Positions 21,664 to 51,835 of a stretch of 64,000 bases of DNA are shown here, piece after piece. Numbering within the stretch: the first letter of the stretch is position 1; every line of letters starts with the position of its first letter. Position numbers and translations under genes: made by a program. The stretch lies in sequence record PP274704.1. One strand, written 5' to 3'. Below the pieces are notes generated by a model. That model did no database searches and was not told where the DNA came from. It worked only from the letters and a program-made list of their open reading frames with translations. This stretch comes from Escherichia phage ECp13.

Positions 21664-21745
21664 ATACAAGTAATATAAATCTATACTTAGGAAAAATAGA
21701 TGATTCTAGGTCCTGTAAATTCATTAAAAATTTTTTCACAAAACT

Positions 21746-21775
21746 GTTTACAAGACTGTTCCTCTGTGGTACTAT
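21746..21775 (+). promoter_or_regulatory. T4-type early promoter
   Basis: GTTTAC 21746-51, 18-nt spacer, TACTAT; ~40-bp block nearly identical to 48462-48500. Confidence 0.55.
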
Positions 21776-21809
21776 TACTCTATCAACCAATACAAATTTG
21801 GAGAATGAA

Positions 21810-22190
21810 ATGAAAATTGCTATTTTGGTTATTGCATTGGGTCTTACTGGTTGTGTAGCTCAAGGACCAGTAGTAAATCAGTCTGATGCAGGAAAAATTG
21901 TAAACTGTTCAAGCAAATTTTATAATCCTAACGTCAAGTGTTATAAAGAAGCTCCAAAACAGACAGTAGAACAAATGCAGGCGAATTTTGACGAAGCTAT
22001 TCGTCCAGATGAATCTGCTCAAGCATATCGTAATTCAGATGTAATTACACGCGAAGAAAAAATTGAAAACTACTGCGCCGAACTTTGGGCTAATTGGGCT
22101 AATAATTACCAATGGCGAACTGGTAAAAATGCTCCAATGGAGTATGTAGTGAATTCTTATAATTCATGTGTAAAAAATTTGACTAAGTGA
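21810..22190 (+). CDS. putative lipoprotein, 126 aa (imm.1-position ORF)
   Basis: ATG 21810 after GGAGA; signal MKIAILVIALGLTGC; upstream part of track ORF is translated promoter. Confidence 0.5.
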   Translation: MKIAILVIALGLTGCVAQGPVVNQSDAGKIVNCSSKFYNPNVKCYKEAPKQTVEQMQANFDEAIRPDESAQAYRNSDVITREEKIENYCAELWANWANNYQWRTGKNAPMEYVVNSYNSCVKNLTK

Positions 22191-22197
22191 GGAAAAG

Positions 22198-22449
22198 ATG
22201 GAAACTTTAGTAGCAGGTTCAATTTTTATGGTTTTAGTTTCATGCGTGTTGGCTATTATTATATACATGCTTCCATGGTTCATCGCCTTGATGCGCGGGT
22301 CAAAATCGACAGTAGGAATCTTTTTCACATCTTTACTGTTTAACTGGTCAATTATTGGTTGGTTTATTACATTTATTTGGTCAATTGCGGGTGAAACTAA
22401 AAAATCTGTGCAGCAAAATCAAGTAATTATCATCAGAGAGAAGGAATGA
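22198..22449 (+). CDS. imm: superinfection immunity protein Imm
   Basis: 83 aa membrane protein; matches recalled T4 Imm. Confidence 0.8.
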   Translation: METLVAGSIFMVLVSCVLAIIIYMLPWFIALMRGSKSTVGIFFTSLLFNWSIIGWFITFIWSIAGETKKSVQQNQVIIIREKE

Positions 22450-22595
22450 AAAGCAAAATTTTAACAGTATTGCTTTTAATCTTGATGATTATAATAAGTA
22501 TATACTATAGCGTAACGGTTCCTTGTATGATTCCAACGCTTATTATAGGGTGGAGTTTATTACTGTTACAAGTTAAATATGAATGTATCAATTGA
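22446..22595 (+). CDS. small membrane peptide, 49 aa
   Basis: ATGA overlap with imm stop; strongly hydrophobic; below ORF-track cutoff. Confidence 0.4.
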   Translation: MKSKILTVLLLILMIIISIYYSVTVPCMIPTLIIGWSLLLLQVKYECIN

Positions 22596-22602
22596 GGTTT
22601 AA

Positions 22603-23343
22603 ATGATTAATGACTCTTTGACAGTTGAAGAAACTCGTCTTCATTTGGGAATTGCGTTAAAGGAAAAAGATTTCGTAATTGATAAAACTGGCGTTAAAAC
22701 TATTGAAATTATTGGCGCATCATTTGTAGCAGATGAACCGTTTATTTTTGGCGCTCTTAATGATGAATACATTCAGCGTGAACTTGAATGGTATAAATCT
22801 AAAAGTTTGTTTGTTAAAGATATTCCGGGTGAAACACCGAAGATTTGGCAACAGGTAGCATCTTCTAAAGGCGAAATTAACTCGAATTATGGTTGGGCCA
22901 TCTGGTCAGAAGATAACTATGCCCAGTATGATATGTGTTTAGCTGAACTTGGTCAAAATCCTGATTCTCGACGTGGTATCATGATTTATACTCGTCCATC
23001 CATGCAGTTTGACTACAATAAAGATGGTATGTCAGATTTCATGTGTACGAATACAGTACAGTACCTGATTCGTGATAAGAAAGTCAATGCAGTAGTAAGC
23101 ATGCGTTCAAATGACGTGGTCTTCGGATTCCGTAATGATTATGCATGGCAAAAATACGTACTAGATAAATTAGTATCTGATTTGAATGCAGGTGATTCAA
23201 CTCGTCAGTATAAAGCAGGTTCCATTATATGGAATGTCGGGAGCCTTCATGTGTATTCCCGTCATTTTTATTTGGTTGACCATTGGTGGAAAACTGGCGA
23301 AACTCATATTGCGAAAAAAGATTATAACGGTGAGTGGAAATGA
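22603..23343 (+). CDS. 42: dCMP hydroxymethylase gp42
   Basis: 246 aa, thymidylate-synthase-like fold motifs. Confidence 0.9.
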   Translation: MINDSLTVEETRLHLGIALKEKDFVIDKTGVKTIEIIGASFVADEPFIFGALNDEYIQRELEWYKSKSLFVKDIPGETPKIWQQVASSKGEINSNYGWAIWSEDNYAQYDMCLAELGQNPDSRRGIMIYTRPSMQFDYNKDGMSDFMCTNTVQYLIRDKKVNAVVSMRSNDVVFGFRNDYAWQKYVLDKLVSDLNAGDSTRQYKAGSIIWNVGSLHVYSRHFYLVDHWWKTGETHIAKKDYNGEWK

Positions 23344-24182
23344 TTCAATTCGTAATTCCAAGCTATCAACGCGTAGGGGCAGTTTCTGCCCTTGATATGT
23401 TTCCGACTGATTATGAACCTCATATTGTAGTACGTGAACACGAAGAAAAAGCTTATTATGACGCTTACGGGTCTAGAGCTAAAATTATAACTATTCCTGA
23501 TGATGTTAATGGAATTGCTGGTACTCGTAAAGCAATTACTGATATGTATGCAGGTCAACGAATTTGGATGATTGATGATGATACTACTATTCGTATGAGT
23601 TCAATGCGAAAGAAAGATGATCGTCGCTGCGTAGATAAAATTAATCAGTTAACTCGTGAACAGTTCTATGAATTGATTCAATACGTTGAAGATGCCATGG
23701 ATTGCGGGTATTATCACGGTCATGCTCGTCTACCTATTTTTAAAATTACTTCATCTTGGGGTAATTATCGTGAAAATTCATATGGATTCACGAATACTTG
23801 GTATGACCTCGGGAAACTTACAACAGAACAAATTGGGTATGGAAAAATTGATTTATGCGAAGATATGTATGCATTTCTCAATTTAATTAATCAAGGTTAT
23901 CCGCATTTGGCCTTGTTCAAATATCTGGTTGTGTCTGGAAAAGCACAGGCTCCTGGCGGATGTAGTTCAATTCGTAGTAATTCAAAACATAATAGAGCTC
24001 TTGAGCAAATCAATAGAGAGTTTCCAGAGCAAGCTCGTTGGAAAACATCGAATATCGAAAAGAGAAAATCGTTGGGTGAAGAAGACGAGCCATTAAAAGT
24101 TCTTCGCATGTGTGTTTCGCGCAAAGAAAAATCAGAAGCATTTCATAAGTTTAATGCTATTCATCCAATAGCAGTTGATTAA
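23340..24182 (+). CDS. glycosyltransferase, not T4 beta-gt; likely T2/T6-type beta-alpha-glucosyltransferase
   Basis: 280 aa, ATGA overlap with gene 42; DxD motif in WMIDDDTTI; does not match recalled T4 BGT sequence. Confidence 0.6.
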   Translation: MIQFVIPSYQRVGAVSALDMFPTDYEPHIVVREHEEKAYYDAYGSRAKIITIPDDVNGIAGTRKAITDMYAGQRIWMIDDDTTIRMSSMRKKDDRRCVDKINQLTREQFYELIQYVEDAMDCGYYHGHARLPIFKITSSWGNYRENSYGFTNTWYDLGKLTTEQIGYGKIDLCEDMYAFLNLINQGYPHLALFKYLVVSGKAQAPGGCSSIRSNSKHNRALEQINREFPEQARWKTSNIEKRKSLGEEDEPLKVLRMCVSRKEKSEAFHKFNAIHPIAVD

Positions 24183-25787: not shown

Positions 25788-27215
25788 GTGGTAGAAATTA
25801 TTCTTTCTCATCTCATATTTGATCAAGCTTATTTTTCAAAAGTTTGGCCATATATGGATTCAGAATATTTTGAAAGTGGTCCAGCTAAAAATACATTCAA
25901 ATTAATTAAATCTCATGTTAATGAGTACCATAGCGTTCCATCTATTAATGCGTTAAATGTTGCATTAGAAAATAGTTCATTTACTGAAACAGAATATTCT
26001 GGTGTAAAAACACTTATTTCGAAACTAGCCGATTCTCCAGAAGACCACAGCTGGTTAGTAAAAGAAACAGAAAAATATGTTCAGCAAAGGGCGATGTTTA
26101 ATGCTACGTCTAAAATAATTGAAATTCAAACCAATGCTGAGCTTCCTCCGGAAAAACGAAATAAGAAAATGCCGGATGTTGGTGCTATTCCTGACATTAT
26201 GCGCCAAGCATTATCAATTTCATTTGATAGCTACGTTGGTCATGATTGGATGGATGACTACGAAGCACGTTGGCTATCTTATATGAATAAAGCTCGTAAG
26301 GTTCCATTTAAACTCAAAATTCTAAATAAAATTACTAAAGGCGGAGCTGAAACTGGAACACTAAACGTTTTAATGGCTGGTGTTAACGTTGGTAAGTCAT
26401 TAGGTCTGTGTTCATTGGCAGCAGATTATTTACAGCTCGGTCATAATGTTCTTTACATTTCAATGGAAATGGCAGAAGAAGTCTGTGCTAAGCGTATTGA
26501 CGCTAATATGCTTGATGTTTCTCTTGATGACATTGATGACGGGCATATTTCTTACGCTGAGTATAAAGGAAAAATGGAAAAATGGCGTGAGAAATCTACT
26601 CTCGGCCGTTTAATCGTTAAGCAATATCCTACTGGTGGAGCAGACGCTAACACATTTCGATCGCTTTTAAACGAATTGAAGCTCAAGAAGAATTTTGTTC
26701 CAACAATCATTATTGTTGACTATCTGGGTATTTGTAAATCTTGCCGCATTAGAGTTTATTCAGAAAATAGTTACACAACTGTTAAAGCTATCGCAGAGGA
26801 ATTGCGTGCTCTGGCTGTTGAAACTGAAACTGTTCTTTGGACTGCAGCACAGGTTGGTAAACAAGCTTGGGATTCTTCTGATGTTAACATGAGCGATATC
26901 GCAGAATCTGCCGGTCTTCCAGCAACAGCCGATTTTATGCTTGCGGTCATTGAAACCGAGGAGTTAGCAGCTGCTGAACAACAACTCATTAAGCAAATCA
27001 AATCACGATATGGTGATAAGAATAAATGGAATAAGTTTTTGATGGGTGTTCAAAAAGGAAATCAGAAATGGGTAGAAATTGAACAAGATTCTACTCCAAC
27101 TGAAGTGAACGAAGTAGCAGGTTCACAGCAGATTCAGGCTGAACAGAATCGCTATCAAAGAAACGAATCTGCTCGAGCTCAGTTAGATGCTTTGGCAAAT
27201 GAATTAAAATTTTAG
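25788..27215 (+). CDS. 41: replicative DNA helicase gp41 (DnaB-like)
   Basis: 475 aa, GTG start after AAGGAG; Walker A GVNVGKS. Confidence 0.95.
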   Translation: MVEIILSHLIFDQAYFSKVWPYMDSEYFESGPAKNTFKLIKSHVNEYHSVPSINALNVALENSSFTETEYSGVKTLISKLADSPEDHSWLVKETEKYVQQRAMFNATSKIIEIQTNAELPPEKRNKKMPDVGAIPDIMRQALSISFDSYVGHDWMDDYEARWLSYMNKARKVPFKLKILNKITKGGAETGTLNVLMAGVNVGKSLGLCSLAADYLQLGHNVLYISMEMAEEVCAKRIDANMLDVSLDDIDDGHISYAEYKGKMEKWREKSTLGRLIVKQYPTGGADANTFRSLLNELKLKKNFVPTIIIVDYLGICKSCRIRVYSENSYTTVKAIAEELRALAVETETVLWTAAQVGKQAWDSSDVNMSDIAESAGLPATADFMLAVIETEELAAAEQQLIKQIKSRYGDKNKWNKFLMGVQKGNQKWVEIEQDSTPTEVNEVAGSQQIQAEQNRYQRNESARAQLDALANELKF

Positions 27216-27245
27216 TTTACAAGCTGACAAGACTATGGTATAGTA
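27216..27245 (+). promoter_or_regulatory. T4-type early promoter
   Basis: GTTTAC 27216-21, 18-nt spacer, TGG-TATAGT; 9-bp inverted repeat 27228-36/27245-53 brackets the -10. Confidence 0.5.
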
Positions 27246-27273
27246 GTCTTGTTGGTTAAATGAGGAGATTGTT

Positions 27274-27456
27274 ATGGAATTGGTAAAGGTAGTTTTTATG
27301 GGGTGGTTTAAGAACGAAAGCATATTTGCTAAAGAAATCACAATGATGAAAGATGACGTTCAATGGGCTACTACTCAATATGCTGAAGTTAATAAAGCGC
27401 TAGTTAAAGCTTTCATTGATGACAAGAAAGTATGTGAAGTGGATTGCCGAGGATAA
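27274..27456 (+). CDS. dmd: Dmd-like protein (antitoxin against host RnlA/LsoA in T4)
   Basis: 60 aa, directly downstream of gene 41 as in T4 (61.5). Confidence 0.6.
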   Translation: MELVKVVFMGWFKNESIFAKEITMMKDDVQWATTQYAEVNKALVKAFIDDKKVCEVDCRG

Positions 27457-27457
27457 T

Positions 27458-27715
27458 ATGCATATTGTTTTATTTAAACCTACTCCGTATAATGTCAGGA
27501 AAAATACTCAATTCAAAGCACTTATTGCAGATACGTGGGAATTAGTATTAGATATTCCAGCAGAAGAAAGTCCTCCATTTGGTCGAGTGGAATTTATTAA
27601 GTTTGCTGTGCGCCCTACGAAGCGACAGATTCGTCAATGCAAAAGATACTTTCGTAAAATCGTCAAGTTAGAGAAACAGTTTGTAACATGTGATTATACA
27701 GAAGTTTTAAAATAA
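27458..27715 (+). CDS. hypothetical protein, 85 aa
   Basis: ATG 27458 after GAGGATAAT. Confidence 0.5.
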   Translation: MHIVLFKPTPYNVRKNTQFKALIADTWELVLDIPAEESPPFGRVEFIKFAVRPTKRQIRQCKRYFRKIVKLEKQFVTCDYTEVLK

Positions 27716-27717
27716 TT

Positions 27718-27747
27718 GTTTACTTTTATTGGAAATTGAGATACTAT
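27718..27747 (+). promoter_or_regulatory. T4-type early promoter
   Basis: GTTTAC 27718-23, 18-nt spacer, TACTAT. Confidence 0.5.
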
Positions 27748-27773
27748 AAACATAAACTACTGAGGAGATTATC

Positions 27774-28067
27774 ATGAAAAAATTTATCTTTGCTGCAATT
27801 TTTGCTTTATCTTCTTGCGCTGCTCAGCCTGCTATGGCGGGTTATGACAAAGATTTGTGTGAATGGTCTATGACTGCAGATCAGACTGAAGTTGAAACTC
27901 AAATTGAAGCGGATATTATGAATATCGTTGAGCGTGATCATCCTGAAATGAAAGCTGAAGTGCAAAAACAACTTAAGTCTGGTGGTGTAATGCAGTATAA
28001 TTACGTTCTGTATTGCGATAAAAACTTTAATAATAAAAATATCATCGCTGAAGTGGTAGGTGAGTAA
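27774..28067 (+). CDS. sp: spackle periplasmic protein (Sp-like)
   Basis: 97 aa with signal peptide MKKFIFAAIFALSSCAAQPAMA; size and position match T4 sp (61.3). Confidence 0.65.
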   Translation: MKKFIFAAIFALSSCAAQPAMAGYDKDLCEWSMTADQTEVETQIEADIMNIVERDHPEMKAEVQKQLKSGGVMQYNYVLYCDKNFNNKNIIAEVVGE

Positions 28068-29830: not shown

Positions 29831-29843
29831 ATGTCCTCCTTAT

Positions 29844-29867
29844 TGCTTTATATATTTATTGTATAAT
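29844..29867 (+). promoter_or_regulatory. putative middle promoter for gene 56 (MotA box TTGCTTTA + TATAAT)
   Basis: TTGCTTTA 29844-51, TATAAT 29862-67. Confidence 0.4.
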
Positions 29868-29901: not shown

Positions 29902-30419
29902 ATGGCTTACTTTAATGAATGTAGTCAACTGATTGAAGGCGCTGATAAAGCTCAAAATGAATACTGGGATATTCTCGGCGATGAAAAAGACCCGCTGCAG
30001 GTTATGCTTGATATGCAGAAATCTCTGCAGGTTCGTTTAGCTAAAGATAAACCTGAATATAACCGTCATCCTGATGATTTGGCTACTGCAGGTGAAGTTG
30101 TTGATTGGCTGCGTAATCAGAAAGATTATATTGATGATGAATTCCGCGAACTTCTGACTTCTCTTGGTGGTATGAGCAATGGCGAAAAAGATGCATCTGC
30201 TGTATGGAAGCTTGGAAGTCGCAACACGGTGAACGTCGTGAAACTCTGATTACTGACTTATCTCCACAAGACCAGTTGGAAATTAAATTCGAAATGATTG
30301 ATATTCTTCATTTCGTTCTGAACATGTTCCAAGGTCTCGGTCTTACGGCTGAAGAAATCTTTAAACTTTATTATCTGAAAAATGCTGAAAACTTCGCTCG
30401 TCAAGACCGAGGTTATTAA
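29902..30419 (+). pseudogene. 56: dCTPase (dCTP pyrophosphatase, MazG-like) gp56 interrupted by an apparent 1-nt deletion
   Basis: N-terminal 116 codons in one frame (stop 30247-49), C-terminal conserved part in -1 frame from ~30204; joint length ~171 aa as in T4 gp56. Confidence 0.65.
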
Positions 30420-30744: not shown

Positions 30745-30770
30745 AAGGACTCCTTCGGGAGTCCTTTTTT
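30745..30770 (+). terminator. rho-independent terminator after soc
   Basis: GGACUCC-UUCG-GGAGUCC followed by TTTTTT. Confidence 0.8.
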
Positions 30771-30780
30771 CATTTTACCG

Positions 30781-30810
30781 GTTTACTTTCCAAAACAAGT
30801 ATGGTATAAT
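30781..30810 (+). promoter_or_regulatory. T4-type early promoter
   Basis: GTTTAC 30781-86, 18-nt spacer, TGG-TATAAT. Confidence 0.6.
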
Positions 30811-30836
30811 AAAATTATCTTATAGAGGAGAGCACT

Positions 30837-31049
30837 ATGTTAAATCGTTGGATTAAACCAAATGAAGACCTCCAGAAGGTTCTTGATAAAGCTATCTCTG
30901 ATAAATGGGGTATGAAAAGCTGGGATTGTGATATCGTCACGCATTCATTCATGATGCATGCAGATGGTTCAGTCGAGTTCAATGCTGAAATGCGATACAC
31001 TGACTGGGGTGGATTTCAAAGAGTCGAATTTCAAAGAGGCTTTTTGTAA
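30837..31049 (+). CDS. hypothetical protein, 70 aa
   Basis: ATG after AGAGGAGAG. Confidence 0.5.
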   Translation: MLNRWIKPNEDLQKVLDKAISDKWGMKSWDCDIVTHSFMMHADGSVEFNAEMRYTDWGGFQRVEFQRGFL

Positions 31050-32692: not shown

Positions 32693-32875
32693 ATGGATTT
32701 ATTTGAGATGTTAGAAGATAATCATTCTACGAATATCCAGAATGATTCTAGTGATTATAAGAAAGAGTACCGTATAGTATTACAGAATTATGGAATTGAA
32801 GCCCCAGATGCTCTTCTAGAAGAACTAGCTTCATACCATCTTGACCCTCCGCCCTGGGCTCCCTGGGCAAAATAA
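32693..32875 (+). CDS. hypothetical protein, 60 aa
   Basis: short ORF after AGGAATTAAT. Confidence 0.45.
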   Translation: MDLFEMLEDNHSTNIQNDSSDYKKEYRIVLQNYGIEAPDALLEELASYHLDPPPWAPWAK

Positions 32876-32886
32876 TTCAAAAAGTT

Positions 32887-32916
32887 GTTTACTTTCCTTC
32901 CTAACAATGATATGAT
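32887..32916 (+). promoter_or_regulatory. T4-type early promoter
   Basis: GTTTAC 32887-92, 18-nt spacer, TATGAT. Confidence 0.5.
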
Positions 32917-32942
32917 AGCTTCTGAAGTATATGGAGGCTATC

Positions 32943-34165: not shown

Positions 34166-34221
34166 TGGAAGGACTTAGATTCATTATACCACGAAAGTTT
34201 TAAAGCATTTTTCATAAAGTT

Positions 34222-34251
34222 GTTTACAAACTGAAGTAAAAATGTTATAGT
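34222..34251 (+). promoter_or_regulatory. T4-type early promoter
   Basis: GTTTAC 34222-27, 18-nt spacer, TATAGT. Confidence 0.5.
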
Positions 34252-34281
34252 ATAAGTAGTTAACCCGTCCGTGAGAAAAAT

Positions 34282-35028
34282 ATGAAACTGTCTAAAAATC
34301 AAATTCGTAAAATTACACGTCGTCTAGAGCATACCCAGGCATCTGCTAAAAGACGTTCTAAAGATTTTAACTTAGACTTCAATTACATTAAGAACATTTT
34401 AGATCAGAAAGTTTGCGCTTACTCAGGAGAACCTTTTGATAATCGTATTGAAGGAGAGAAATTATCATTAGAACGTTTTGATAATAACGTTGGATACATT
34501 AAAGGGAATGTTATTGCAGTAAAGAAAAAGTACAATACATTTCGTTCTGATTATACTTTAGAAGAGTTGATTGAAAAGCGTGATTTATTTGCTTTGCGAA
34601 TTGGTCGTTCATCTGCGAAAAAGGTTCATAAACTAAATTTAGATGAAAAGAAATGGGCTAAAATCAAAAAGACTTATAATCAAATTAAAGCTATACAGAA
34701 AAAACGTGAAAACCGAATTGAACACATTTCTCAGCTTTCTAAATCAAAACAAACCTCTGACATTAAGCTAACGATTGTAGCACTCAAAGCTCGTATTGAT
34801 GGTTCTCGTATAGCAGAAGGAACTGAAGTTGTTAAATTGAACGTTCTTCTTAAAGGCTCTGATTGGAAAACTGTGAAAAAGTTGTCAGAAGCAGAAATGC
34901 AATATGATATGTGTGATAAAATTATTCAAGGTGTAGAGCGGTATCAAAACTTGTCTTTTATTGATAAACTTAAACTGAAAAGAGGATACCCGCTAAATTG
35001 TTCAATTTTTAAACTTATCCGAGGATAA
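34282..35028 (+). CDS. srd: Srd-like protein
   Basis: 248 aa; position upstream of dda.1/dda as in T4; name from position and length only. Confidence 0.5.
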   Translation: MKLSKNQIRKITRRLEHTQASAKRRSKDFNLDFNYIKNILDQKVCAYSGEPFDNRIEGEKLSLERFDNNVGYIKGNVIAVKKKYNTFRSDYTLEELIEKRDLFALRIGRSSAKKVHKLNLDEKKWAKIKKTYNQIKAIQKKRENRIEHISQLSKSKQTSDIKLTIVALKARIDGSRIAEGTEVVKLNVLLKGSDWKTVKKLSEAEMQYDMCDKIIQGVERYQNLSFIDKLKLKRGYPLNCSIFKLIRG

Positions 35029-37391: not shown

Positions 37392-38074
37392 TGTTTGATT
37401 TTATTATAGATTTTGAAACAATGGGAAGCGGTGAAAAGGCAGCTGTTATTGATTTGGCTGTTATTGCCTTTGACCCTAATCCAGAAGTAGTTGAAACATT
37501 TGATGAATTAGTTTCACGCGGCATTAAAATCAAGTTTGATTTAAAAAGCCAAAAAGGACATCGTCTTTTTACTAAAAGCACTATCGAATGGTGGAAAAAT
37601 CAATCTCCTGAAGCTCGAAAAAATATTGCACCATCAGATGAAGATGTAAGCACTATCGATGGTATTGCAAAATTTAATGATTACATCAATGCGCATAATA
37701 TCGATCCTTGGAAATCTCAAGGCTGGTGCCGTGGAATGTCGTTTGATTTTCCAATTTTAGTTGATCTCATTCGTGATATTCAGCGTCTTAACGGCGTTTC
37801 CGAGAATGAGCTTGATACGTTTAAGTTAGAACCTTGTAAATTCTGGAATCAACGCGATATTCGCACCAGAATTGAAGCACTTCTGCTTGTTCGTGATATG
37901 ACCACATGTCCTCTTCCAAAGGGAACTTTAGACGGGTTCGTTGCGCATGATTCTATTCATGACTGTGCGAAAGACATCCTGATGATGAAGTATGCTTTGC
38001 GATATGCTATGGGTCTTGAAGATGCTCCGTCAGAGGAAGAGTGCGATCCTCTATCTCTTCCAACAAAACGATAA
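37391..38074 (+). CDS. dexA: exonuclease A (DnaQ-like 3'-5' exonuclease)
   Basis: 227 aa; DFET exonuclease motif. Confidence 0.85.
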   Translation: MFDFIIDFETMGSGEKAAVIDLAVIAFDPNPEVVETFDELVSRGIKIKFDLKSQKGHRLFTKSTIEWWKNQSPEARKNIAPSDEDVSTIDGIAKFNDYINAHNIDPWKSQGWCRGMSFDFPILVDLIRDIQRLNGVSENELDTFKLEPCKFWNQRDIRTRIEALLLVRDMTTCPLPKGTLDGFVAHDSIHDCAKDILMMKYALRYAMGLEDAPSEEECDPLSLPTKR

Positions 38075-38080
38075 AAAGTT

Positions 38081-38110
38081 GTTTACTTCCTCGGTTAGTT
38101 GTGGTATTAT
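38081..38110 (+). promoter_or_regulatory. T4-type early promoter
   Basis: GTTTAC 38081-86, 18-nt spacer, TGG-TATTAT. Confidence 0.55.
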
Positions 38111-38137
38111 AACACCATAGCTACTGAGGATAATAAA

Positions 38138-38647
38138 ATGAAAATTTATCGTGTTGAATCATCGTTTAGTATTCTTGATTATGAAGATGCTATAACAATA
38201 CGTCGAAATCTTTGTGTTCAAATAACGCCGTACAGGAGTATAATAGATTCATGGAGCGAAGAGTGGCTATTACGTGTAGGTTATAGTAGACCTAATTTTA
38301 TGCATCATAGCGATAATAATAAAAGAATTCCTCTTCCGCGCGAAGACAAATTATTAGTTAAAAATGCTAATATAGCAATTAATACTAAATTTGAGAAAGA
38401 GGAATATGTAGGCGTAGATCACTATATTCCAGGATGGTTTATAGCTCTTTATCATTTTGCTTTCGCTAGTGAATATGATATGATGAGATGGTTCACACGA
38501 GAAGAGCGTGAAGAATTATCTTCTAAAGGATTTTATCTCGCTGTATACGAAGTTCCTGAAGATGAAGTTATCATTGGCGGACACCAAGTAATGTTCCGTA
38601 AATCCCATGCTGAACTTGTAGATTTTATTGAAATGAGACAATTATGA
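38138..38647 (+). CDS. hypothetical protein, 169 aa
   Basis: ATG 38138 after TGAGGATAATAAA. Confidence 0.5.
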   Translation: MKIYRVESSFSILDYEDAITIRRNLCVQITPYRSIIDSWSEEWLLRVGYSRPNFMHHSDNNKRIPLPREDKLLVKNANIAINTKFEKEEYVGVDHYIPGWFIALYHFAFASEYDMMRWFTREEREELSSKGFYLAVYEVPEDEVIIGGHQVMFRKSHAELVDFIEMRQL

Positions 38648-39186
38648 AATTTAATTATAATCCTGAATACACCCCAAATCCTATAGATAAAATATTTGAT
38701 ATGGATACAGCAAGCATGTACGGCACTCTTGTTAAACCATTAGAAATTAAGGAAACCTTTATGACTGCTCGGATCATCGAAATTGGCAAAACCTACAAAC
38801 TGGTTGAAACTGAAATTAAAACTACTGAACTAAGTTTGGGTTATAAAGCATTGACCAGTGTTTTGGGTGAAGGCGAGTTTGTGGTTAAAAGTTTTTCAAA
38901 AAGTAATTGGCATGATAAGAATAAAGCTTACGTGATTCGAGCACAACGCTTAGATAATGATGAAGTAATTAAAACTATAGTCTTTGAAGTAGAGCTTATC
39001 CTCTTCCAAGAATGCGATCCTACTGACCTTCTAACTCGTGCTGTAGCTATCAAGACTCCATTTGTTTCGGTCTATGGTTGGGTAACAGACCAGTGGATTG
39101 AAGATGGTGTTGAACTTCTGAACGTGGTTCATGCAGGCGATTTTAGCGTAGTACCTCGTAGTGCAGTGGTAGCTATTTTGAATTAA
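38644..39186 (+). CDS. hypothetical protein, 180 aa
   Basis: ATGA overlap with previous ORF. Confidence 0.55.
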   Translation: MKFNYNPEYTPNPIDKIFDMDTASMYGTLVKPLEIKETFMTARIIEIGKTYKLVETEIKTTELSLGYKALTSVLGEGEFVVKSFSKSNWHDKNKAYVIRAQRLDNDEVIKTIVFEVELILFQECDPTDLLTRAVAIKTPFVSVYGWVTDQWIEDGVELLNVVHAGDFSVVPRSAVVAILN

Positions 39187-39188
39187 TA

Positions 39189-39218
39189 GTTTACAAACTC
39201 TTGGGACCAGAGTATAAT
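39189..39218 (+). promoter_or_regulatory. T4-type early promoter with inverted repeat across the -10
   Basis: GTTTAC 39189-94, TATAAT 39213-18; GGGACCA 39202-08 and TGGTCCC 39218-24. Confidence 0.5.
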
Positions 39219-39262
39219 GGTCCCGTGGAGTATAAAATCTTTTTAACAAGTGAGAGATAACT

Positions 39263-39760
39263 ATGATTATTAATATTGGTGAAATTGCTCGTGTATCTGA
39301 TAAATCCCGTTCTAAAGCAGCAGGAAAATTGGTTGAAATTGTAAGCATTCAGCTTAAACACGGTGTTAAAGATGAAGATTCTGAAGTAAAAGTGCGTATC
39401 ATTCCTAAAGATGGAAAATCTAAACCTCAGTTTGGCTATGTTCGTGCGAAATTTATTGAGTCTGCGTTTTTGAAAGCTGTTCCTGCTAAAGGAATTGAAA
39501 CGATTGATACTTCGCATGTAGGCGTAGACTTTAAGTGGAAACTCGGTCAAGCTATTAAGTTCGTTGCTCCTTATGAATTCGAATTTACTGAAGATGAGGA
39601 AGGGGTTGTTCAAAAACACCGTACTCGCGCTATGTGTGCATACATTACCGATCAGTGGGTAGAAGATGGCGTTAAGTTGTACAACGCGGTATTTTTAGGA
39701 ACATACAAAGTCATTCCAGAAAGTTGGATTAAACACTATAGCAAAGCCCGCTGTGCATAA
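39263..39760 (+). CDS. motB: MotB-like protein
   Basis: 165 aa; position relative to dexA and 39 as in T4; name from position and length only. Confidence 0.5.
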   Translation: MIINIGEIARVSDKSRSKAAGKLVEIVSIQLKHGVKDEDSEVKVRIIPKDGKSKPQFGYVRAKFIESAFLKAVPAKGIETIDTSHVGVDFKWKLGQAIKFVAPYEFEFTEDEEGVVQKHRTRAMCAYITDQWVEDGVKLYNAVFLGTYKVIPESWIKHYSKARCA

Positions 39761-39790
39761 AGTTTAAAATTTTTTCATAAAACTATATAC

Positions 39791-39833
39791 ATCAGTAGTT
39801 GATTATGGTACTATATCAATATCAACTACTGAT
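39791..39833 (+). promoter_or_regulatory. 13-bp perfect inverted repeat enclosing a -10-like TACTAT
   Basis: ATCAGTAGTTGAT 39791-803 and ATCAACTACTGAT 39821-833, 17-nt spacer; leader shared with motA promoter region. Confidence 0.45.
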
Positions 39834-39857
39834 ACAGAAAACAACTTGGAGAATAAA

Positions 39858-40127
39858 ATGGAAAACTTAATTATCATCGAACAATCTTTCAACGATTATG
39901 GTATGGCTTACGGTTATCGTGCGATAATGGAAGATTCTCGTGGATGTGTTATCGATATTGCTGAATGTAAAGATTTACTGCAGCTTTTGAAGATTGTTCG
40001 TAAAAATTGGGATTGTGAAAACATTAAAGTTCGTGTTGTAACGGAAGAAGAAACTGTTTTTCATGATGTAAAATTCGCCAAAGGTGCTGCCACTCTTCTG
40101 AAACGCATCGCTCCAATGTTCAATTAA
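39858..40127 (+). CDS. hypothetical protein, 89 aa
   Basis: ATG 39858 after GGAGAATAAA. Confidence 0.5.
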   Translation: MENLIIIEQSFNDYGMAYGYRAIMEDSRGCVIDIAECKDLLQLLKIVRKNWDCENIKVRVVTEEETVFHDVKFAKGAATLLKRIAPMFN

Positions 40128-41662: not shown

Positions 41663-43480
41663 ATGATTAAGAATGAAATTAAAATTCTGAGCGATATTGA
41701 ACATATCAAAAAGCGTAGCGGCATGTACATTGGCTCTTCCGCTAATGAAATGCATGAGCGCTTTCTGTTTGGTAAATGGGAAAGTGTTCAGTATGTACCT
41801 GGTCTTGTTAAGCTTATTGATGAAATTATCGATAACTCAGTAGATGAAGGTATTCGTACTAAGTTTAAATTCGCGAATAAAATTAATGTTACTATCAAAA
41901 ACAATCAAGTAACAGTTGAAGATAACGGTCGTGGTATTCCACAAGCGATGGTTAAAACACCTACTGGTGAAGAAATTCCCGGTCCTGTTGCCGCCTGGAC
42001 TATTCCAAAAGCAGGTGGTAACTTCGGTGATGATAAAGAACGTGTCACTGGCGGTATGAACGGTGTTGGTTCTAGTTTAACTAACATTTTTTCTGTGATG
42101 TTTGTCGGTGAAACTGGCGACGGTCAAAATAATATTGTAGTTCGTTGTTCAAATGGCATGGAAAATAAATCATGGGAAGATATTCCCGGAAAATGGAAAG
42201 GAACTCGTGTTACTTTCATTCCTGATTTTATGTCATTTGAAACTAATGAGCTGTCTCAAGTTTATCTTGACATTACACTGGATCGTCTCCAGACACTTGC
42301 AGTAGTTTATCCTGATATTCAATTTACCTTTAATGGTAAAAAGGTTCAGGGTAATTTTAAGAAATATGCACGCCAATATGATGAGCATGCTATTGTTCAA
42401 GAACAAGAAAATTGTTCTATTGCGGTTGGTCGTTCACCAGATGGTTTTCGTCAATTAACATACGTCAATAACATTCATACTAAGAATGGTGGCCATCACA
42501 TTGACTGCGTTATGGATGATATTTGTGAAGACCTTATTCCACAAATCAAACGTAAGTTCAAAATTGATGTAACTAAAGCACGTGTTAAAGAATGTTTGAC
42601 TATCGTTATGTTTGTTCGTGATATGAAAAACATGCGATTTGATTCTCAGACTAAAGAGCGTTTGACTTCTCCATTTGGTGAAATTCGTAGTCATATTCAG
42701 CTTGATGCTAAAAAGATTTCACGTGCTATTTTAAATAATGAAGCAATTTTAATGCCAATTATTGAAGCTGCCTTGGCTCGTAAATTGGCAGCAGAAAAAG
42801 CAGCAGAAACTAAAGCAGCTAAAAAGGCTTCTAAAGCTAAGGTTCATAAACATATTAAAGCGAATCTTTGTGGTAAAGACGCTGACACTACTCTTTTCTT
42901 GACTGAGGGTGATTCTGCTATCGGATATCTTATTGATGTTCGTGATAAAGAACTTCATGGTGGTTATCCATTGCGTGGTAAAGTTCTCAACAGTTGGGGT
43001 ATGTCATATGCTGATATGCTTAAAAACAAAGAACTGTTTGATATTTGTGCAATTACTGGATTAGTTCTTGGTGAAAAAGCTGAAAACTTGAATTATCATA
43101 ATATTGCTATTATGACCGATGCTGACCATGATGGTCTAGGAAGCATTTATCCTTCTCTGCTCGGATTTTTTAGTAATTGGCCAGAACTGTTTGAACAAGG
43201 AAGAATTCGCTTCGTCAAAACTCCTGTAATCATCGCTCAGGTCGGTAAAAAACAAGAATGGTTTTATACAGTCGCTGAATATGAGAGTGCCAAAGATGCT
43301 CTACCTAAACATAGCATCCGTTATATTAAGGGACTTGGCTCTTTGGAAAAATCTGAATATCGTGAGATGATTCAAAACCCAGTATATGATGTTGTTAAAC
43401 TTCCTGAGAACTGGAAAGAGCTTTTTGAAATGCTCATGGGAGATAATGCTGACCTTCGTAAAGAATGGATGAGCCAATAG
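41663..43480 (+). CDS. 39: DNA topoisomerase II large subunit gp39 (GyrB-like), single ORF covering T4 genes 39+60
   Basis: 605 aa from ATG 41663 (SD GAGGATAAG); GHKL ATPase and TOPRIM motifs; no interruption. Confidence 0.9.
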   Translation: MIKNEIKILSDIEHIKKRSGMYIGSSANEMHERFLFGKWESVQYVPGLVKLIDEIIDNSVDEGIRTKFKFANKINVTIKNNQVTVEDNGRGIPQAMVKTPTGEEIPGPVAAWTIPKAGGNFGDDKERVTGGMNGVGSSLTNIFSVMFVGETGDGQNNIVVRCSNGMENKSWEDIPGKWKGTRVTFIPDFMSFETNELSQVYLDITLDRLQTLAVVYPDIQFTFNGKKVQGNFKKYARQYDEHAIVQEQENCSIAVGRSPDGFRQLTYVNNIHTKNGGHHIDCVMDDICEDLIPQIKRKFKIDVTKARVKECLTIVMFVRDMKNMRFDSQTKERLTSPFGEIRSHIQLDAKKISRAILNNEAILMPIIEAALARKLAAEKAAETKAAKKASKAKVHKHIKANLCGKDADTTLFLTEGDSAIGYLIDVRDKELHGGYPLRGKVLNSWGMSYADMLKNKELFDICAITGLVLGEKAENLNYHNIAIMTDADHDGLGSIYPSLLGFFSNWPELFEQGRIRFVKTPVIIAQVGKKQEWFYTVAEYESAKDALPKHSIRYIKGLGSLEKSEYREMIQNPVYDVVKLPENWKELFEMLMGDNADLRKEWMSQ

Positions 43481-43509
43481 TTTACTTTACCACAAGGATG
43501 TGGTATAAT
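43480..43509 (+). promoter_or_regulatory. T4-type early promoter
   Basis: GTTTAC 43480-85, 18-nt spacer, TGG-TATAAT; near-identical to 11-40. Confidence 0.6.
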
Positions 43510-43534
43510 TAATTGGGCAAATGAGGATATTGAA

Positions 43535-43738
43535 ATGAAATCATATAGAGTAAATTTAGAACTTTTTGATAAAGCAGTTCATCGAGAATATAGAATCATT
43601 CAACGCTTTTTCGATATGGGAGAAGCTGAAGAGTTTAAAAACCGCTTTAAGGATATTAGAGATAAAATTCAATCCGACACCGCAACTAAAGATGAACTAC
43701 TAGAAGTTGCTGAAGTTATTAAACGCAATATGAATTAA
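43535..43738 (+). CDS. hypothetical protein, 67 aa
   Basis: ORF after ATGAGGATATTGAA. Confidence 0.5.
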
Positions 43739-43748
43739 TGAGGAAATT

Positions 43749-46875: not shown

Positions 46876-46889
46876 GGGCTTCGGCCCTT
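46874..46889 (+). other. GC-rich UUCG hairpin without T tract after rIIB
   Basis: AAGGGC-UUCG-GCCCUU directly followed by SD of next ORF. Confidence 0.5.
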
Positions 46890-47102: not shown

Positions 47103-47125
47103 AGGGGCTTCGGCCCTTTTGTTTT
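47103..47125 (+). terminator. rho-independent terminator (GGGGC-UUCG-GCCC + TTTTGTTTT)
   Basis: GC stem, UUCG loop, T-rich tail. Confidence 0.7.
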
Positions 47126-47466: not shown

Positions 47467-47956
47467 CTTGACTAGTGAAATGAAGGTCAAAATTGCTGAT
47501 ACAGCAAGATACTCTTTAAAACAAAATCCAAATCAGGATAAAGCAGAAGTTATTGAAAGATGTCGTATCGCGGTGTACGCAGAATTTTTTGTAGCAGATT
47601 GGCTAAGTGGGTATGTTAACAAAGGCCAAGAAGATGTTAATGACCCGTATACATATGCATGGGATGTATTGGCGCATCCAAGATACTGCGGGCTTCGTGT
47701 AGAAGTTAAGACACATCAAACTGACTCACGTTGGATTTCTGTAACAACAGGATGCAGCGGAGAGTATCCATATGGTTCTGGAATAAATCTAGGGCCCATT
47801 CTGAATCATCAGGTCGCTGACTGTATAATTATATTCAACACTAAAGAAATTCATCCAGGTGTCATCCAGTACACTCCGAAGTTCATTGGTGATAGAGAAG
47901 ACCTTCGTAAGGTTGTAAGAAAAAGCAACTACAACGGATGGTATCTTTCCATTTAA
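47399..47956 (+). CDS. denB: endonuclease IV (DenB-like)
   Basis: 185 aa as in T4 DenB; position after rIIB; start could instead be internal Met at 47480; name from position and length only. Confidence 0.55.
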   Translation: MQKTNPGLQRLFQIPTFTLSNSDLTSEMKVKIADTARYSLKQNPNQDKAEVIERCRIAVYAEFFVADWLSGYVNKGQEDVNDPYTYAWDVLAHPRYCGLRVEVKTHQTDSRWISVTTGCSGEYPYGSGINLGPILNHQVADCIIIFNTKEIHPGVIQYTPKFIGDREDLRKVVRKSNYNGWYLSI

Positions 47957-47973
47957 AAAATTTTCACAAAACG

Positions 47974-48003
47974 GTTTACATACCACAAGGACTGTGGTAC
48001 TAT
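47974..48003 (+). promoter_or_regulatory. T4-type early promoter
   Basis: GTTTAC 47974-79, 18-nt spacer, TGG-TACTAT. Confidence 0.55.
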
Positions 48004-48037
48004 ACAACTATCAACTGATACGGATTTGGAGAATAAA

Positions 48038-48244
48038 ATGTTTACTACAGCTGAATTAAAACGAGCAAAAGCTAAGAAAGGGCAAGGAAAATATAAAGCT
48101 GAATTAGTTAAAGAACTTCAGTTTGCTGAGGCTGAATTGAATTCAATGATTATTCAAAATGCTCCAGAAACTGAAATTGCTCTTAAACGTATTGCGAATA
48201 AGTGTCTTCGTGATGCAATCGTCGATCTTTTAGCAGATTATTGA
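48038..48244 (+). CDS. hypothetical protein, 68 aa
   Basis: ATG 48038 after GGAGAATAAA. Confidence 0.5.
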   Translation: MFTTAELKRAKAKKGQGKYKAELVKELQFAEAELNSMIIQNAPETEIALKRIANKCLRDAIVDLLADY

Positions 48245-48461
48245 GTAAAATGAAAATCATTGAGATTGAACTATGAGTTCATTGTGGTGGTGTTTTGTTT
48301 GGTTAATTAGTATTCCATTAATTTGTTTAACATTTACTTTTGTAATGAGGTTATTATGAAAATTTTGAATTCTGTGCTTATTGCTTGTGCGTGGTGGGTT
48401 GCGCAAGTTTCGGCAGTGGTGATTGGTATTCACATTTATTACGAATATTTTTAAAAAAGTT

Positions 48462-48491
48462 GTTTACAAGACTGTTCCTCTGTGGTATTAT
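48462..48491 (+). promoter_or_regulatory. T4-type early promoter
   Basis: GTTTAC 48462-67, 18-nt spacer, TGG-TATTAT. Confidence 0.55.
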
Positions 48492-48519
48492 TACCCTATC
48501 AACTACGGAGGAACAGAAA

Positions 48520-48633
48520 ATGAAAAAGATTGTTAAAGCTATATGGAATGTAGTTATAATACTAGTAGTTTTGAGTATATTCCCAATCGTTTTAATGATT
48601 GATGTATTAAACGCTTACTTTGGATTTATGTGA
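48520..48633 (+). CDS. small membrane peptide, 37 aa
   Basis: ATG 48520 after CGGAGGAACAG; hydrophobic. Confidence 0.35.
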   Translation: MKKIVKAIWNVVIILVVLSIFPIVLMIDVLNAYFGFM

Positions 48634-48640
48634 GGAAAAT

Positions 48641-49930: not shown

Positions 49931-49937
49931 GGAAAAT

Positions 49938-50096
49938 ATGAATATCGCAAAATTATTAGGAGTTATTTCATTTATTTGTTGGATAGTAGCATGTGTTTTA
50001 ACTATCTGTATCGATGCTAGCAGTGTGTTTTCACAAGCTTTAGCCCAGGGTATGTGTGCATATTTAACATTTGTGTTGTTATCTACTAATGATTAA
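49938..50096 (+). CDS. small membrane protein, 52 aa
   Basis: ATG after TGAGGAAAATA; hydrophobic, Cys-containing. Confidence 0.4.
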   Translation: MNIAKLLGVISFICWIVACVLTICIDASSVFSQALAQGMCAYLTFVLLSTND

Positions 50097-50233
50097 GAAA
50101 ATCTTGGGCTATTCATTAGCCCTTGCTACTTTATTGGTAGCACTATATTATGGAGTAATGTTCGGATTAATTCAAGTCGTGCTTTTCATTTCTGATGTTA
50201 TTATGGCACTACATTCACTAGTATGGTAAATTT

Positions 50234-51562
50234 ATGCAACTGAATAATCGCGATTTAAAAAGTATCATTGATAATGAAGCATTGGCTTATGCTATGTACA
50301 CGGTTGAAAATCGTGCTATCCCAAATATGATTGATGGATTTAAGCCAGTTCAACGATTTGTTATTGCTCGAGCTCTTGATTTGGCACGAGGAAATAAAGA
50401 TAAGTTTCACAAACTCGCTTCTATTGCAGGTGGTGTAGCAGACCTTGGATATCATCATGGTGAAAACTCTGCACAAGATGCTGGGGCTTTGATGGCTAAT
50501 ACTTGGAATAATAACTTTCCTTTGTTAGACGGTCAAGGAAACTTTGGTTCTCGTACCGTTCAAAAAGCAGCGGCAAGTCGTTATATTTTTGCTCGTGTAA
50601 GTAAAAATTTCTATAACGTATATAAAGATACTGAATATGCTCCGGTACATCAAGATAAAGAACACATTCCGCCTGCTTTCTATTTGCCTATTATTCCTAC
50701 TGTTCTTCTTAATGGTGTTTCCGGTATTGCAACTGGTTATGCAACTTACATTCTTCCTCATAGTGTTTCTTCTGTCAAGAAAGCTGTATTGCAAGCTCTT
50801 CAAGGAAAGAAAGTAACTAAACCGAAGGTAGAATTCCCAGAATTTCGCGGTGAAGTCGTTGAAATTGACGGTCAATATGAAATTCGTGGAACATACAAGT
50901 TTACTTCACGAACTCAAATGCATATCACTGAGATTCCATATAAGTATGATCGTGAAACTTACGTGAGTAAAATCTTAGACCCGCTTGAAGATAAAGGTTT
51001 CATTACGTGGGATGATGCTTGCGGTGAGCATGGTTTTGGCTTTAAAGTTAAATTCCGTAAAGAATACTCTTTGAGTGATAACGAAGAAGAACGTCATGCA
51101 AAAATTATGAAAGACTTCGGGTTGATTGAGCGTCGTTCCCAGAATATTACCGTTATTAATGAGAAAGGAAAACTACAAGTTTACGATAACGTAGTTGATT
51201 TAATCAAAGACTTCGTTGAAGTTCGTAAAACTTATGTCCAAAAACGAATTGATAACAAAATCAAAGAAACTGAATCAGCATTTCGTTTAGCCTTTGCCAA
51301 GGCACATTTCATTAAGAAAGTAATTTCAGGTGAAATTGTTGTACAGGGTAAAACTCGCAAAGAACTGACCGAAGAACTTTCTAAAATTGATATGTATTCT
51401 TCTTATGTTGATAAACTAGTTGGAATGAATATTTTTCATATGACTTCCGACGAAGCAAAGAAACTTGCTGAAGAAGCTAAAGCTAAAAAAGAAGAAAACG
51501 AATATTGGAAAACTACTGATGTAGTTACAGAATACACCAAAGATTTAGAGGAAATCAAATGA
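50234..51562 (+). CDS. 52: DNA topoisomerase II medium subunit gp52 (GyrA-like)
   Basis: 442 aa; matches recalled T4 gp52. Confidence 0.9.
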   Translation: MQLNNRDLKSIIDNEALAYAMYTVENRAIPNMIDGFKPVQRFVIARALDLARGNKDKFHKLASIAGGVADLGYHHGENSAQDAGALMANTWNNNFPLLDGQGNFGSRTVQKAAASRYIFARVSKNFYNVYKDTEYAPVHQDKEHIPPAFYLPIIPTVLLNGVSGIATGYATYILPHSVSSVKKAVLQALQGKKVTKPKVEFPEFRGEVVEIDGQYEIRGTYKFTSRTQMHITEIPYKYDRETYVSKILDPLEDKGFITWDDACGEHGFGFKVKFRKEYSLSDNEEERHAKIMKDFGLIERRSQNITVINEKGKLQVYDNVVDLIKDFVEVRKTYVQKRIDNKIKETESAFRLAFAKAHFIKKVISGEIVVQGKTRKELTEELSKIDMYSSYVDKLVGMNIFHMTSDEAKKLAEEAKAKKEENEYWKTTDVVTEYTKDLEEIK

Positions 51563-51713
51563 GTCCATTCATAGGTATTACAAGCGCTGCATTAGTATCT
51601 GGTAGCATTTTACTGGCGGGTTTAGGTGTTGTTCCTGCCGTAGCAGGAGGTCTTCTTGCGTTCGGAATTCAACGTGTTATCATGACAGTTATCACAGTCA
51701 TGCAGTAATTTTA

Positions 51714-51740
51714 GGGAGAGCCAAGGCTCTCCCTTTTTTA
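51714..51740 (+). terminator. rho-independent terminator
   Basis: GGGAGAGCC-AA-GGCUCUCCC followed by TTTTTT. Confidence 0.8.
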
Positions 51741-51764
51741 TTTCAAAAATTTTTTCACAAAACG

Positions 51765-51794
51765 GTTTACAACCAAAGCATACTGTGGTATTAT
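51765..51794 (+). promoter_or_regulatory. T4-type early promoter for motA
   Basis: GTTTAC 51765-70, 18-nt spacer, TGG-TATTAT. Confidence 0.6.
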
Positions 51795-51835
51795 ACAACT
51801 ATCAACTACTGATACAGAATTACGGAGATTAGAAA

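Follow-up and report, generated by a model that had tools for sequence, protein, structure and literature searches.

Why do near-identical blocks of DNA recur in front of unrelated small genes along the genome of Escherichia phage ECp13? The window analysed here, 64,000 nucleotides of sequence record PP274704.1, is a segment of a Tequatrovirus (T4-like) phage; megablast places Shigella phage ESh26 closest (97–98% identity), and T4-like coliphages match by the hundreds at 93–97%. A preliminary description of the window had read the blocks as early-promoter/leader cassettes resembling the promoter-early stem-loops (PeSLs) that have been proposed to drive the shuffling of genes in T4-type phages. 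With high confidence, we identify the repeats as early promoters (Pe) of a T4-like phage, dependent on sigma-70, along with the short 5′ leaders that follow them; the label of early-promoter/leader cassettes was apt, as 16 of 16 copies are orthologous to T4 promoter positions. The promoter family and its link to swappable small genes are already known (Repoila 1994, Arbiol 2010, Comeau 2014), and the finding as such is correct but ordinary: a described family is recognised in a further member of a heavily sequenced genus. It yields an early-region promoter map of the phage with 16 transcription units and their leaders, and four promoter-proximal slots (21.8, 39.8, 48.0 and 51.8 kb) where accessory open reading frames (ORFs) turn over. 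Map and slots are useful for annotation and for the choice of neutral insertion sites in the engineering of T4-like phages.

Early promoters, leaders and their counterparts in T4

A loose scan for −35 and −10 elements, followed by alignment, identified 16 cassettes in the window, more than the preliminary description had listed. All of them lie on the + strand, along which the early transcription of T4 runs according to the alignment to T4 (AF158101). Allowing up to two mismatches, the pattern GTTTAC-N15-TGGTAYWAT occurred at 17 sites, compared with 0.67 ± 0.77 in shuffled sequences, and nowhere on the − strand; 16 of the sites are the cassettes and the 17th is a two-mismatch match inside the gene 44 orthologue. 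A generic sigma-70 scan of the window was uninformative (56 matches vs 58.8 expected).

The anatomy of the cassettes, which is directly observed, follows one layout: an A/T-rich UP region, the −35 element GTTTAC, a 17-bp spacer, an extended −10 element (TGTGGTAYWAT), a short leader, a GGAG Shine-Dalgarno (SD) sequence and an ATG. The −35 hexamer (at −36..−31) is exact in 15 of the 16 copies, the spacer measures 17 bp in every one, TG stands at −15/−14 in 14, and both A at −11 and T at −7 are invariant (16/16). Information peaks at −36..−31 (GTTTAC), at −16..−7 (TGGTAT.AT), at the A-rich positions −40/−42/−54 and in a T-tract at −47/−46; it is high at A/T positions between −54 and −38 and about zero at −30..−18. 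Transcription is predicted to start about 7 nt after the −10 element, which places the ATG some 20–40 nt past the start site in all 16 cassettes. This organisation corresponds to the early consensus of T4 described by Nolan et al., with GTTTAC at −36..−31, an A-rich UP-like region at −40..−44 and a GT-rich extension 5′ of −12 (PMC1524935), and to what Hinton called “uber UP/−35/TGn/−10” promoters with extra consensus regions (PMC2988021).

Every part of the repeat can be assigned an established functional role. The A/T-rich UP region would serve the alpha subunits of RNA polymerase, the initially transcribed leader would be of the ATCAAC type, and the GGAG of the SD sequence would offer a target to the RegB/S1 nuclease. 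The 3′ ends of the cassettes are SD regions that fit the RegB/S1 target consensus GG*AGRAYARAA (PMC3014915): the SD sequence GGAGAATAAAA of the copies at 39786 and 47975 matches it exactly, and those of imm.1 (GGAGAATGAAA) and motA (GGAGATTAGAA) agree at 10 of 11 positions each. The motA message, which encodes an early product, is a documented RegB substrate cleaved at its SD sequence (PMC2988021), and RegB may cleave the cassette leaders too. Stacked together, the promoter, leader and SD elements would allow a cassette to be transcribed and translated in a burst as soon as infection begins, and its message would then be inactivated rapidly.

The orthology to T4 is likewise directly established. 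The T4 comparison spanned the entire window; ESh26, Paracelsus, JEP6, CrRp10 and AV122 were compared from about 20.5 kb of the window onward, which covers 14 cassettes from imm.1 to asiA, and in T2 three cassettes (imm.1, motB.2 and motB) were read by eye without a promoter scan. A promoter stands at the syntenic T4 position for 16/16 cassettes, with the same consensus and orientation, at the loci nrdC.4, 55.6, imm.1, dmd, sp, mrh.2, modB, srd, motB.2, motB, cef, rIIA.1, ndd.6, ndd.4, motA and asiA. The five relatives gave 12–14 promoter matches each out of the 14 covered, orthologous cassettes kept their locus-specific spacers, and the scanned relatives had no match on the − strand. Nothing essential separates the window cassettes from the T4 early promoters, only individual alleles, such as the imm.1 promoter of the window with its ndd.4-type spacer. 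Two of the cassettes stand before ORFs missing from T4 (39858–40127 and 48039–48244). The cassettes, all on the + strand, are the following; the position after each name is the start of the TTTACx hexamer.

1..71, nrdC.4 (12): −35 GTTTAC at 11–16, −10 TATAAT at 35–40, ATG at 69; T4 orthologue at about 50937; UP region cut by the window edge; spacer hairpin CCACA-AGGA-TGTGG
7683..7764, 55.6 position (7703), long family: UP region AAATAATTTTCACAAAGTT, −35 at 7702–7707, −10 at 7726–7731, ATG at 7762
21727..21812, imm.1 (21747), long family: spacer the same as in the ndd.4 cassette; ATG at 21810
27195..27276, dmd (27216): 15-bp hairpin around the −10 element, −18.9 kcal/mol, z −4.5
27698..27776, sp (spackle) (27719): no TGn motif and no strong hairpin
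30745..30839, mrh.2 orthologue (30782): putative intrinsic terminator hairpin at 30745–30766 with T-run, then the promoter; ATG at 30837
32867..32933, modB (32888): hairpin of −17.8 kcal/mol pairing the −10 region with the SD sequence GGAGG and the AUG
34201..34284, srd (34223): long-type UP region AAAGCATTTTTCATAAAGTT; repeat family D3
38060..38140, motB.2 (38082): hairpin of −23.7 kcal/mol, z −7.4, pairing the spacer (UCCUC...) with the SD sequence (...GAGGA)
39168..39265, motB (39190): hairpin around the −10 element, −19.7 kcal/mol
39766..39860, cef locus (39786), long family: −35 ATATAC; spacer ATCAGTAGTTGAT pairs with leader ATCAACTACTGAT, −20.2 kcal/mol; SD GGAGAATAAAA; ATG at 39858 opens a variable ORF
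43478..43537, rIIA.1 (43481): core 97% identical to the copy at 9–40
47955..48041, ndd.6 position (47975), long family: 3′ of denB; SD GGAGAATAAAA; ATG at 48039 opens a variable ORF
48443..48523, ndd.4 orthologue (48463): 15-bp hairpin of −23.2 kcal/mol, z −6.4; spacer CUGUUCCUCUGUGGU pairs with the SD-containing ACUACGGAGGAACAG
51713..51838, motA (51766), long family: putative intrinsic terminator at 51713–51734, then the promoter; ATG at 51836; RegB-type SD GGAGATTAGAA
54210..54293, asiA (54231): within the 3′ end of asiA.1; ATG at 54291

The blocks are short and A/T-rich, as would also be expected of a low-complexity similarity arising by chance or of a miniature transposable element. We rejected both readings, whose probability we regard as negligible, on strand bias (16 cassettes on +, 0 on −), fixed positions and lack of terminal repeats: chance would have yielded less than one of the 17 pattern matches, the blocks have neither terminal inverted repeats nor target-site duplications, their distance to the downstream start codon varies within a narrow range, and they occupy orthologous positions in relatives.

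Several points weigh against the promoter reading itself. Promoter activity is deduced from T4 orthology and consensus, and the T4 record AF158101 annotates no promoter features; literature searches on T4 start sites mapped across the genome, and on hairpins at early promoters, found nothing relevant. At 12 bits or more, a weight matrix returned the 16 cassettes and nothing further on either strand, but it was trained on these 16 sites, making the result circular for them and informative for the − strand. The cef-locus cassette carries a poor −35 element (ATATAC, 39785–39790), a deviation that is kept in all genomes scanned (T4, ESh26, Paracelsus, JEP6, CrRp10 and AV122), and the copies at 27719 and 39190 have no TGn. 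Finally, the part of the reading that involves exchange between cassettes draws on few mosaic alleles (five of seven derived sites at imm.1, p about 0.045), which are described below.

Kinship and possible exchange among the cassettes

All blocks quoted in the preliminary description are present where it had placed them. The pair 21746–21790 and 48462–48500 shares GTTTACAAGACTGTTCCTCTGTGGTA(C/T)TATTAC(T/C)CTATCAAC including a 27-nt exact run, and the copies at 9–40 and 43478–43509, which are the nrdC.4 and rIIA.1 cores, are 97% identical (31/32 positions). A leader said to be common to three blocks held for two of them, 39786 and 51766, which share the 20-nt run TATCAACTACTGATACAGAA; the third, 47975, instead reads ATCAACTGATACGG. 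A repeat finder extended these relationships. It recovered a 62-nt repeat in six copies (7683, 21727, 39766, 47955, 48443 and 51746), which accounts for 47955–48016, 51746–51807 and 39766–39827; a 29-nt UP/−35 family, which brings in 34201; and a 32-nt family that joins 9–40 to 43478–43509 and, more loosely, to 27213 and 30779. In 545 phage records, nearly all of them Tequatrovirus, a 92-nt cassette query matched at 3138 places (about 5.8 per record).

How much of this identity is due to a shared consensus? T4 early promoters have a consensus reaching well past −35 and −10, and position-specific consensus explains much of the identity in the UP, −35 and −10 regions. Selection for maximal promoter strength at each site, with neither shared ancestry nor exchange, could in principle have produced the family by convergence. 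We compared the cassettes with a null in which each alignment column was permuted among the promoters (500 shuffles). The best pair, imm.1 and ndd.6, is identical at 71 of 100 positions (shuffles: 55 ± 1.9, largest 64). The spacers of imm.1 and ndd.4 agree at 13/13 positions (8.4 ± 0.8, largest 12), although these positions hold about zero information, and the longest exact run, again between imm.1 and ndd.4, measures 27 nt (13.8 ± 1.5, largest 22). The cef-locus and motA leaders are equal at 22 of 26 positions, including the 20-nt run. Pairwise identity above the column-shuffle maxima implies that the family has sub-families. Pure convergence is therefore improbable, given the spacer identity, runs of 20–27 nt that exceed those in any of the shuffles, and the occurrence of the same spacer and leader at three T4-type loci, namely imm.1 (in the T2 allele), ndd.4 and nrdC.8. 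In the preliminary description, repeats reduced to the 30-bp promoter consensus had been named as an outcome that would speak against an extended family; identity in fact reaches into UP regions, spacers and leaders.

The early-promoter family would thus comprise sub-families that share spacers and leaders by common descent and occasional segment exchange between cassettes. T4 shows the same paralogous pairs, nrdC.4/rIIA.1 and imm.1/ndd.4, and its nrdC.8 promoter is a third member of the imm.1/ndd.4 spacer type; since the pairs also occur in T4, these relationships are old. At imm.1, the promoter of the window differs from the majority of its orthologues at seven sites, and five of the seven equal the ndd.4 paralogue. 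The imm.1 locus of T2 has an ndd.4-type spacer and leader, and one IMG/VR contig joins an ndd.4-type UP region to an rIIA.1-type spacer. The imm.1-locus alleles appear to support some exchange between cassettes.

Hairpins in spacers and leaders

An excess of hairpins in the cassettes is directly established. In 36-nt sliding windows, a hairpin of −13 kcal/mol or below was present in 7/16 cassettes vs 3.3% of 365 same-strand control windows (binomial p = 4e-7), and folded with their flanks the cassette hairpins reach −15 to −24 kcal/mol with z of −4 to −7. They are of several kinds. Two look like ordinary terminators, with T-runs, just upstream of the promoter (30745–30766 and 51713–51734). In five cassettes (dmd, modB, motB.2, motB and cef locus) the −10 hexamer and the start site lie inside the hairpin, and hairpins enclosing the −10 element have no T-run; the ndd.4 hairpin spans the region from the spacer to the SD sequence. 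A weak spacer hairpin of 7 bp, CCACA-AGGA(C/T)-TGTGG (z about −2), is common to the cassettes at 12, 43481 and 47975, and six of the 16 cassettes have no hairpin. Pairing of the spacer with either the −10 region or the leader occurs in about half of the cassettes; it would constrain the spacers in sequence and so be a second source of identity beyond the consensus, besides descent and exchange.

In at least three cassettes, those of modB (32900–32955), motB.2 (38085–38140) and ndd.4 (48465–48525), the SD sequence forms the 3′ arm of the hairpin, in modB together with the AUG, and promoter DNA that precedes the inferred start site forms the 5′ arm. With this arrangement, only transcripts reading through from further upstream could form the three hairpins. 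In a small sample, seven scanned genomes plus three contigs from IMG/VR, hand inspection showed that none of the substitutions present (C/U opposite G, G to A opposite U) disrupts the pairing of the stems; the IMG/VR scan for ndd.4-type cassettes had returned seven loci, four of them orthologous.

A similar device is known from the T4 genes e, soc, 49 and I-TevI, where a hairpin sequestering the ribosome-binding site contains an internal promoter (reviewed in PMC3014915). There, too, the proximal promoter starts transcription downstream of the 5′ arm, and only read-through transcripts have a masked SD sequence or AUG. The difference is that the internal promoter of those genes is late, whereas that predicted for modB, motB.2 and ndd.4 is early. 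By analogy, transcripts started at these three cassettes may have a free SD sequence and be translatable and open to RegB, and read-through transcripts may be masked, untranslatable and resistant to RegB; we put this forward tentatively and regard it as doubtful. If functional, the hairpins would make both the translation of a transcript and its sensitivity to RegB depend on where it was started. If the proposal is true, the “promoter inside the hairpin” logic known from late promoters would also apply to early ones, the expression of modB, motB.2 and ndd.4 would be confined to a promoter-proximal burst, and the locus-by-locus conservation of spacers that carry no consensus information would be explained. 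Such promoter-embedded anti-SD hairpins might be the sole aspect of the family that goes beyond the literature.

Gene turnover beside the cassettes and the surrounding genome

PeSLs were defined in the phages RB49 and phi1. They consist of an AT-rich region and a strong early promoter, followed by an SD sequence with ATG, plus a stem-loop that can take any of five positions, and they are enriched there beside differential ORFans (PMC2839356). Comeau et al. (2014) described them for the PST/T4 pair too, under the consensus TTTACW-N17-TAYWAT, and gave an ndd.4/ndd.5 exchange as an example (PMC4122927); that locus falls in our window, and the consensus fits most of the window copies. The resemblance to PeSLs claimed in the preliminary description agrees with what Arbiol et al. 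(2010) and Comeau et al. state about T-even elements, which the former regard as analogues and not homologues of the RB49 PeSLs (PMC2839356). The window cassettes share the succession of AT-rich region, early promoter, SD sequence and ATG with the PeSLs of RB49/phi1, PST/T4 and nt-1/KVP40; some of them also have stem-loops, upstream of, inside or overlapping the promoter, and some adjoin variable small ORFs. In contrast to PeSLs, a strong stem-loop is found in only seven of the 16, only two are terminator-like, and only one of the indels analysed is bounded by two cassettes. The RB49/phi1 elements moreover have a near-perfect TTGACA and polyG/polyC stems, whereas the window cassettes have GTTTAC and stems that are not polyG/polyC, which does not amount to homology. 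Similar elements were seen by Repoila et al. (1994) at the internal-protein (IP) loci of T-even phages, as cited in PMC2839356 and PMC4122927; they are T4-type early promoters with weak AT-rich stem-loops flanking shuffled small genes, but belong to another genomic region, the IP loci lying outside the window.

The positions and junctions of indels were read directly from chained blastn comparisons of the window with T4, ESh26, Paracelsus, JEP6, CrRp10, AV122 and T2. We counted 17 distinct ORF-scale events between 20.5 and 54.5 kb, of which seven break within −70..+50 of an inferred start site. A lack of synteny breakpoints, the second outcome named beforehand as counting against the cassettes, was not what we found, since ORF-scale breakpoints occur at the cassettes of 21.8, 39.8, 48.0 and 51.8 kb. 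Small-ORF regions at 22.4, 39.8 and 48–50 kb had been pointed out as likely exchange points; the variable ORF near imm.1 lies at 21.81 kb and not at 22.4 kb.

At 21.8 kb, an additional ORF of 233–280 bp separates the promoter from imm.1 in six of seven relatives; it is bounded by a 10-bp repeat, ATGAAAATTG, that comprises both start codons and the first codons. Near 38–39 kb, motB.2-motB.1 (38158–39179) was removed by two independent deletions of about 1 kb, in CrRp10 (about 17043 of the fetched stretch) and in T2 (“escape mutant” record PV648364, about 19292 of the fetched stretch). Both begin 20–30 nt inside motB.2 and stop shortly before the −35 element of motB, leaving the two promoters about 150 bp apart. 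At 39.8 kb, the ORF 39858–40127 varies in presence among relatives, and CrRp10 carries an inserted ORF immediately ahead of the 39786 cassette, bounded by GCATAAAGTTTAA. A cassette-mediated loss of the ORF at the T4 cef locus was considered and rejected: in the T4 allele, 200 bp inside the ORF are deleted, and the start codon and 3′ end persist as a remnant. The ORF after the 47975 cassette (48.0 kb) has three alleles, being missing in T4 and replaced in four relatives; the ORF of the window (48039–48244) is bounded by TAAAATG, and the allele that replaces it at 48016 has its start exactly within the conserved leader CTATCA. At 51.8 kb, Paracelsus carries a further ORF of 75 aa between motA.1 and motA (31760–32170 of the fetched Paracelsus stretch), with an early promoter on either side of it; both promoters have the 23-nt leader CTATCAAATAAATGAACTGAAAC, and this is the sole clean two-cassette case.

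Are the cassettes then mobile units of the PeSL type, in which homologous exchange between two cassettes, possibly via a mini-circle, excises or inserts an ORF and is the main driver of shuffling? The model has been published for T4/PST, including the ndd.4/ndd.5 locus (PMC4122927). It is favoured by the Paracelsus ORF, by the 48016 replacement opening in the leader and by the mosaic cassette alleles, as well as by the seven events at cassettes where uniform placement predicts 1.5 (p = 0.0002). Variable ORFs directly downstream are also more frequent in the long family (4/5) than at other cassettes (1/9; Fisher p = 0.023, for a split made post hoc). However, gene boundaries provide another null, with about 14 of 72 carrying a cassette, and against it seven of 17 is no excess (p = 0.38); for the null “first gene after a promoter”, p is 0.09. 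Ten of the 17 events lie away from cassettes, four of them at loci of T4 homing endonucleases. The junctions next to cassettes are mostly microhomologies of 7–13 bp at SD/ATG and outside the promoter core (ATGAAAATTG, TAAAATG, GCATAAAGTTTAA), the T4 cef-locus allele is an internal ORF deletion, and each of the T2 and CrRp10 deletions has one end within an ORF and the other shortly ahead of the next −35 element. Across the eight genomes compared, the cassettes are fixed in position with locus-specific spacers, so they do not behave as mobile units. We hold cassette mobility as the main driver to be a possibility worth keeping in mind, though one that the evidence disfavours.

That the cassettes mark exchange points, as had been proposed, is thus supported, but these genomes do not show that they drive the exchange. 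For the T-even PeSL model this is a caution: in eight genomes, cassettes have no excess of breakpoints over other gene boundaries. On the reading of the cassettes as stationary early promoters, the first ORF after each would be a tolerated slot for small accessory genes, which is why gain, loss and replacement of ORFs would recur there. The turnover would proceed mostly via short repeats at translation starts and only sometimes via cassette-to-cassette homology, a recombination mechanism that we infer from the junctions.

Along the + strand, the genes of the window are, in order, nrdC.4, nrdD, 55, a-gt, 47/46, 45/44/62, regA, 43, imm, 42, uvsX, 41, 61, 56, soc, modB/modA, srd, dda, dexA, motB, cef/goF, 39, rIIA, rIIB, denB, ndd, 52, motA and asiA. 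Past about 54.5 kb, the genes t, 38, 37, 36, 35 and 34 follow in opposite orientation. An Rfam search of the window matched no family anywhere.

Several differences from T4 were observed in passing. The window phage is without mobA/60.1 and the gene 60 bypass segment (41660–43480), and since this segment is missing, the large topoisomerase subunit is a single 606-aa ORF. The nrdD intron with I-TevII is apparently missing as well, nrdD being a continuous 605-aa ORF (4666–6483). Also missing are mobC, mobB, dam and segF; gaps relative to T4 lie at 6480–6500, 10984–11009, 29841–29862 and 30382–30454. A T2-type glucosyltransferase ORF (23334–24182) stands where T4 has b-gt/segA. Furthermore, rIIA (43749–45925) is broken into the ORFs 43749–45179 and 45158–45925 by a 1-bp deletion near 45149 relative to ESh26 (GTTAAC-TTC vs GTTAACATTC). 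Full-length rIIA is annotated as one 2178-bp gene in five of the relatives examined, and the split is either a genuine rII frameshift mutation or a sequencing error.

The translation initiation regions of the gene 44 (16947–16992) and rIIA (43737–43782) orthologues are 80% identical over 46 nt, the match reading AATGAGGAAATTATGATTA...GAAAAAGAA..ATTCTTG. We take both mRNAs to be targets of the translational repressor RegA in T4, and the similarity may reflect a shared RegA operator.

Repeats of two further kinds were seen. Intergenic GGGCTTCGGCCC hairpins with a UUCG loop (repeat families D5, D6 and D8) lie at 8567–8578, 12206–12217, 16916–16927, 18860–18872, 41598–41610, 46878–46889 and 47108–47119, and are probably intrinsic terminators or RNA stabilisers. 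Arbiol et al. (2010) recall from Mosig 1998 that GGGC/GCCC motifs occur at T4 deletion endpoints in the 56-dda region (PMC2839356). The gene 34 orthologue, which encodes the proximal long tail fibre on the − strand (61225–63978), contains diverged direct repeats of about 30–70 nt at 62720–63768 (families D2 and D11).

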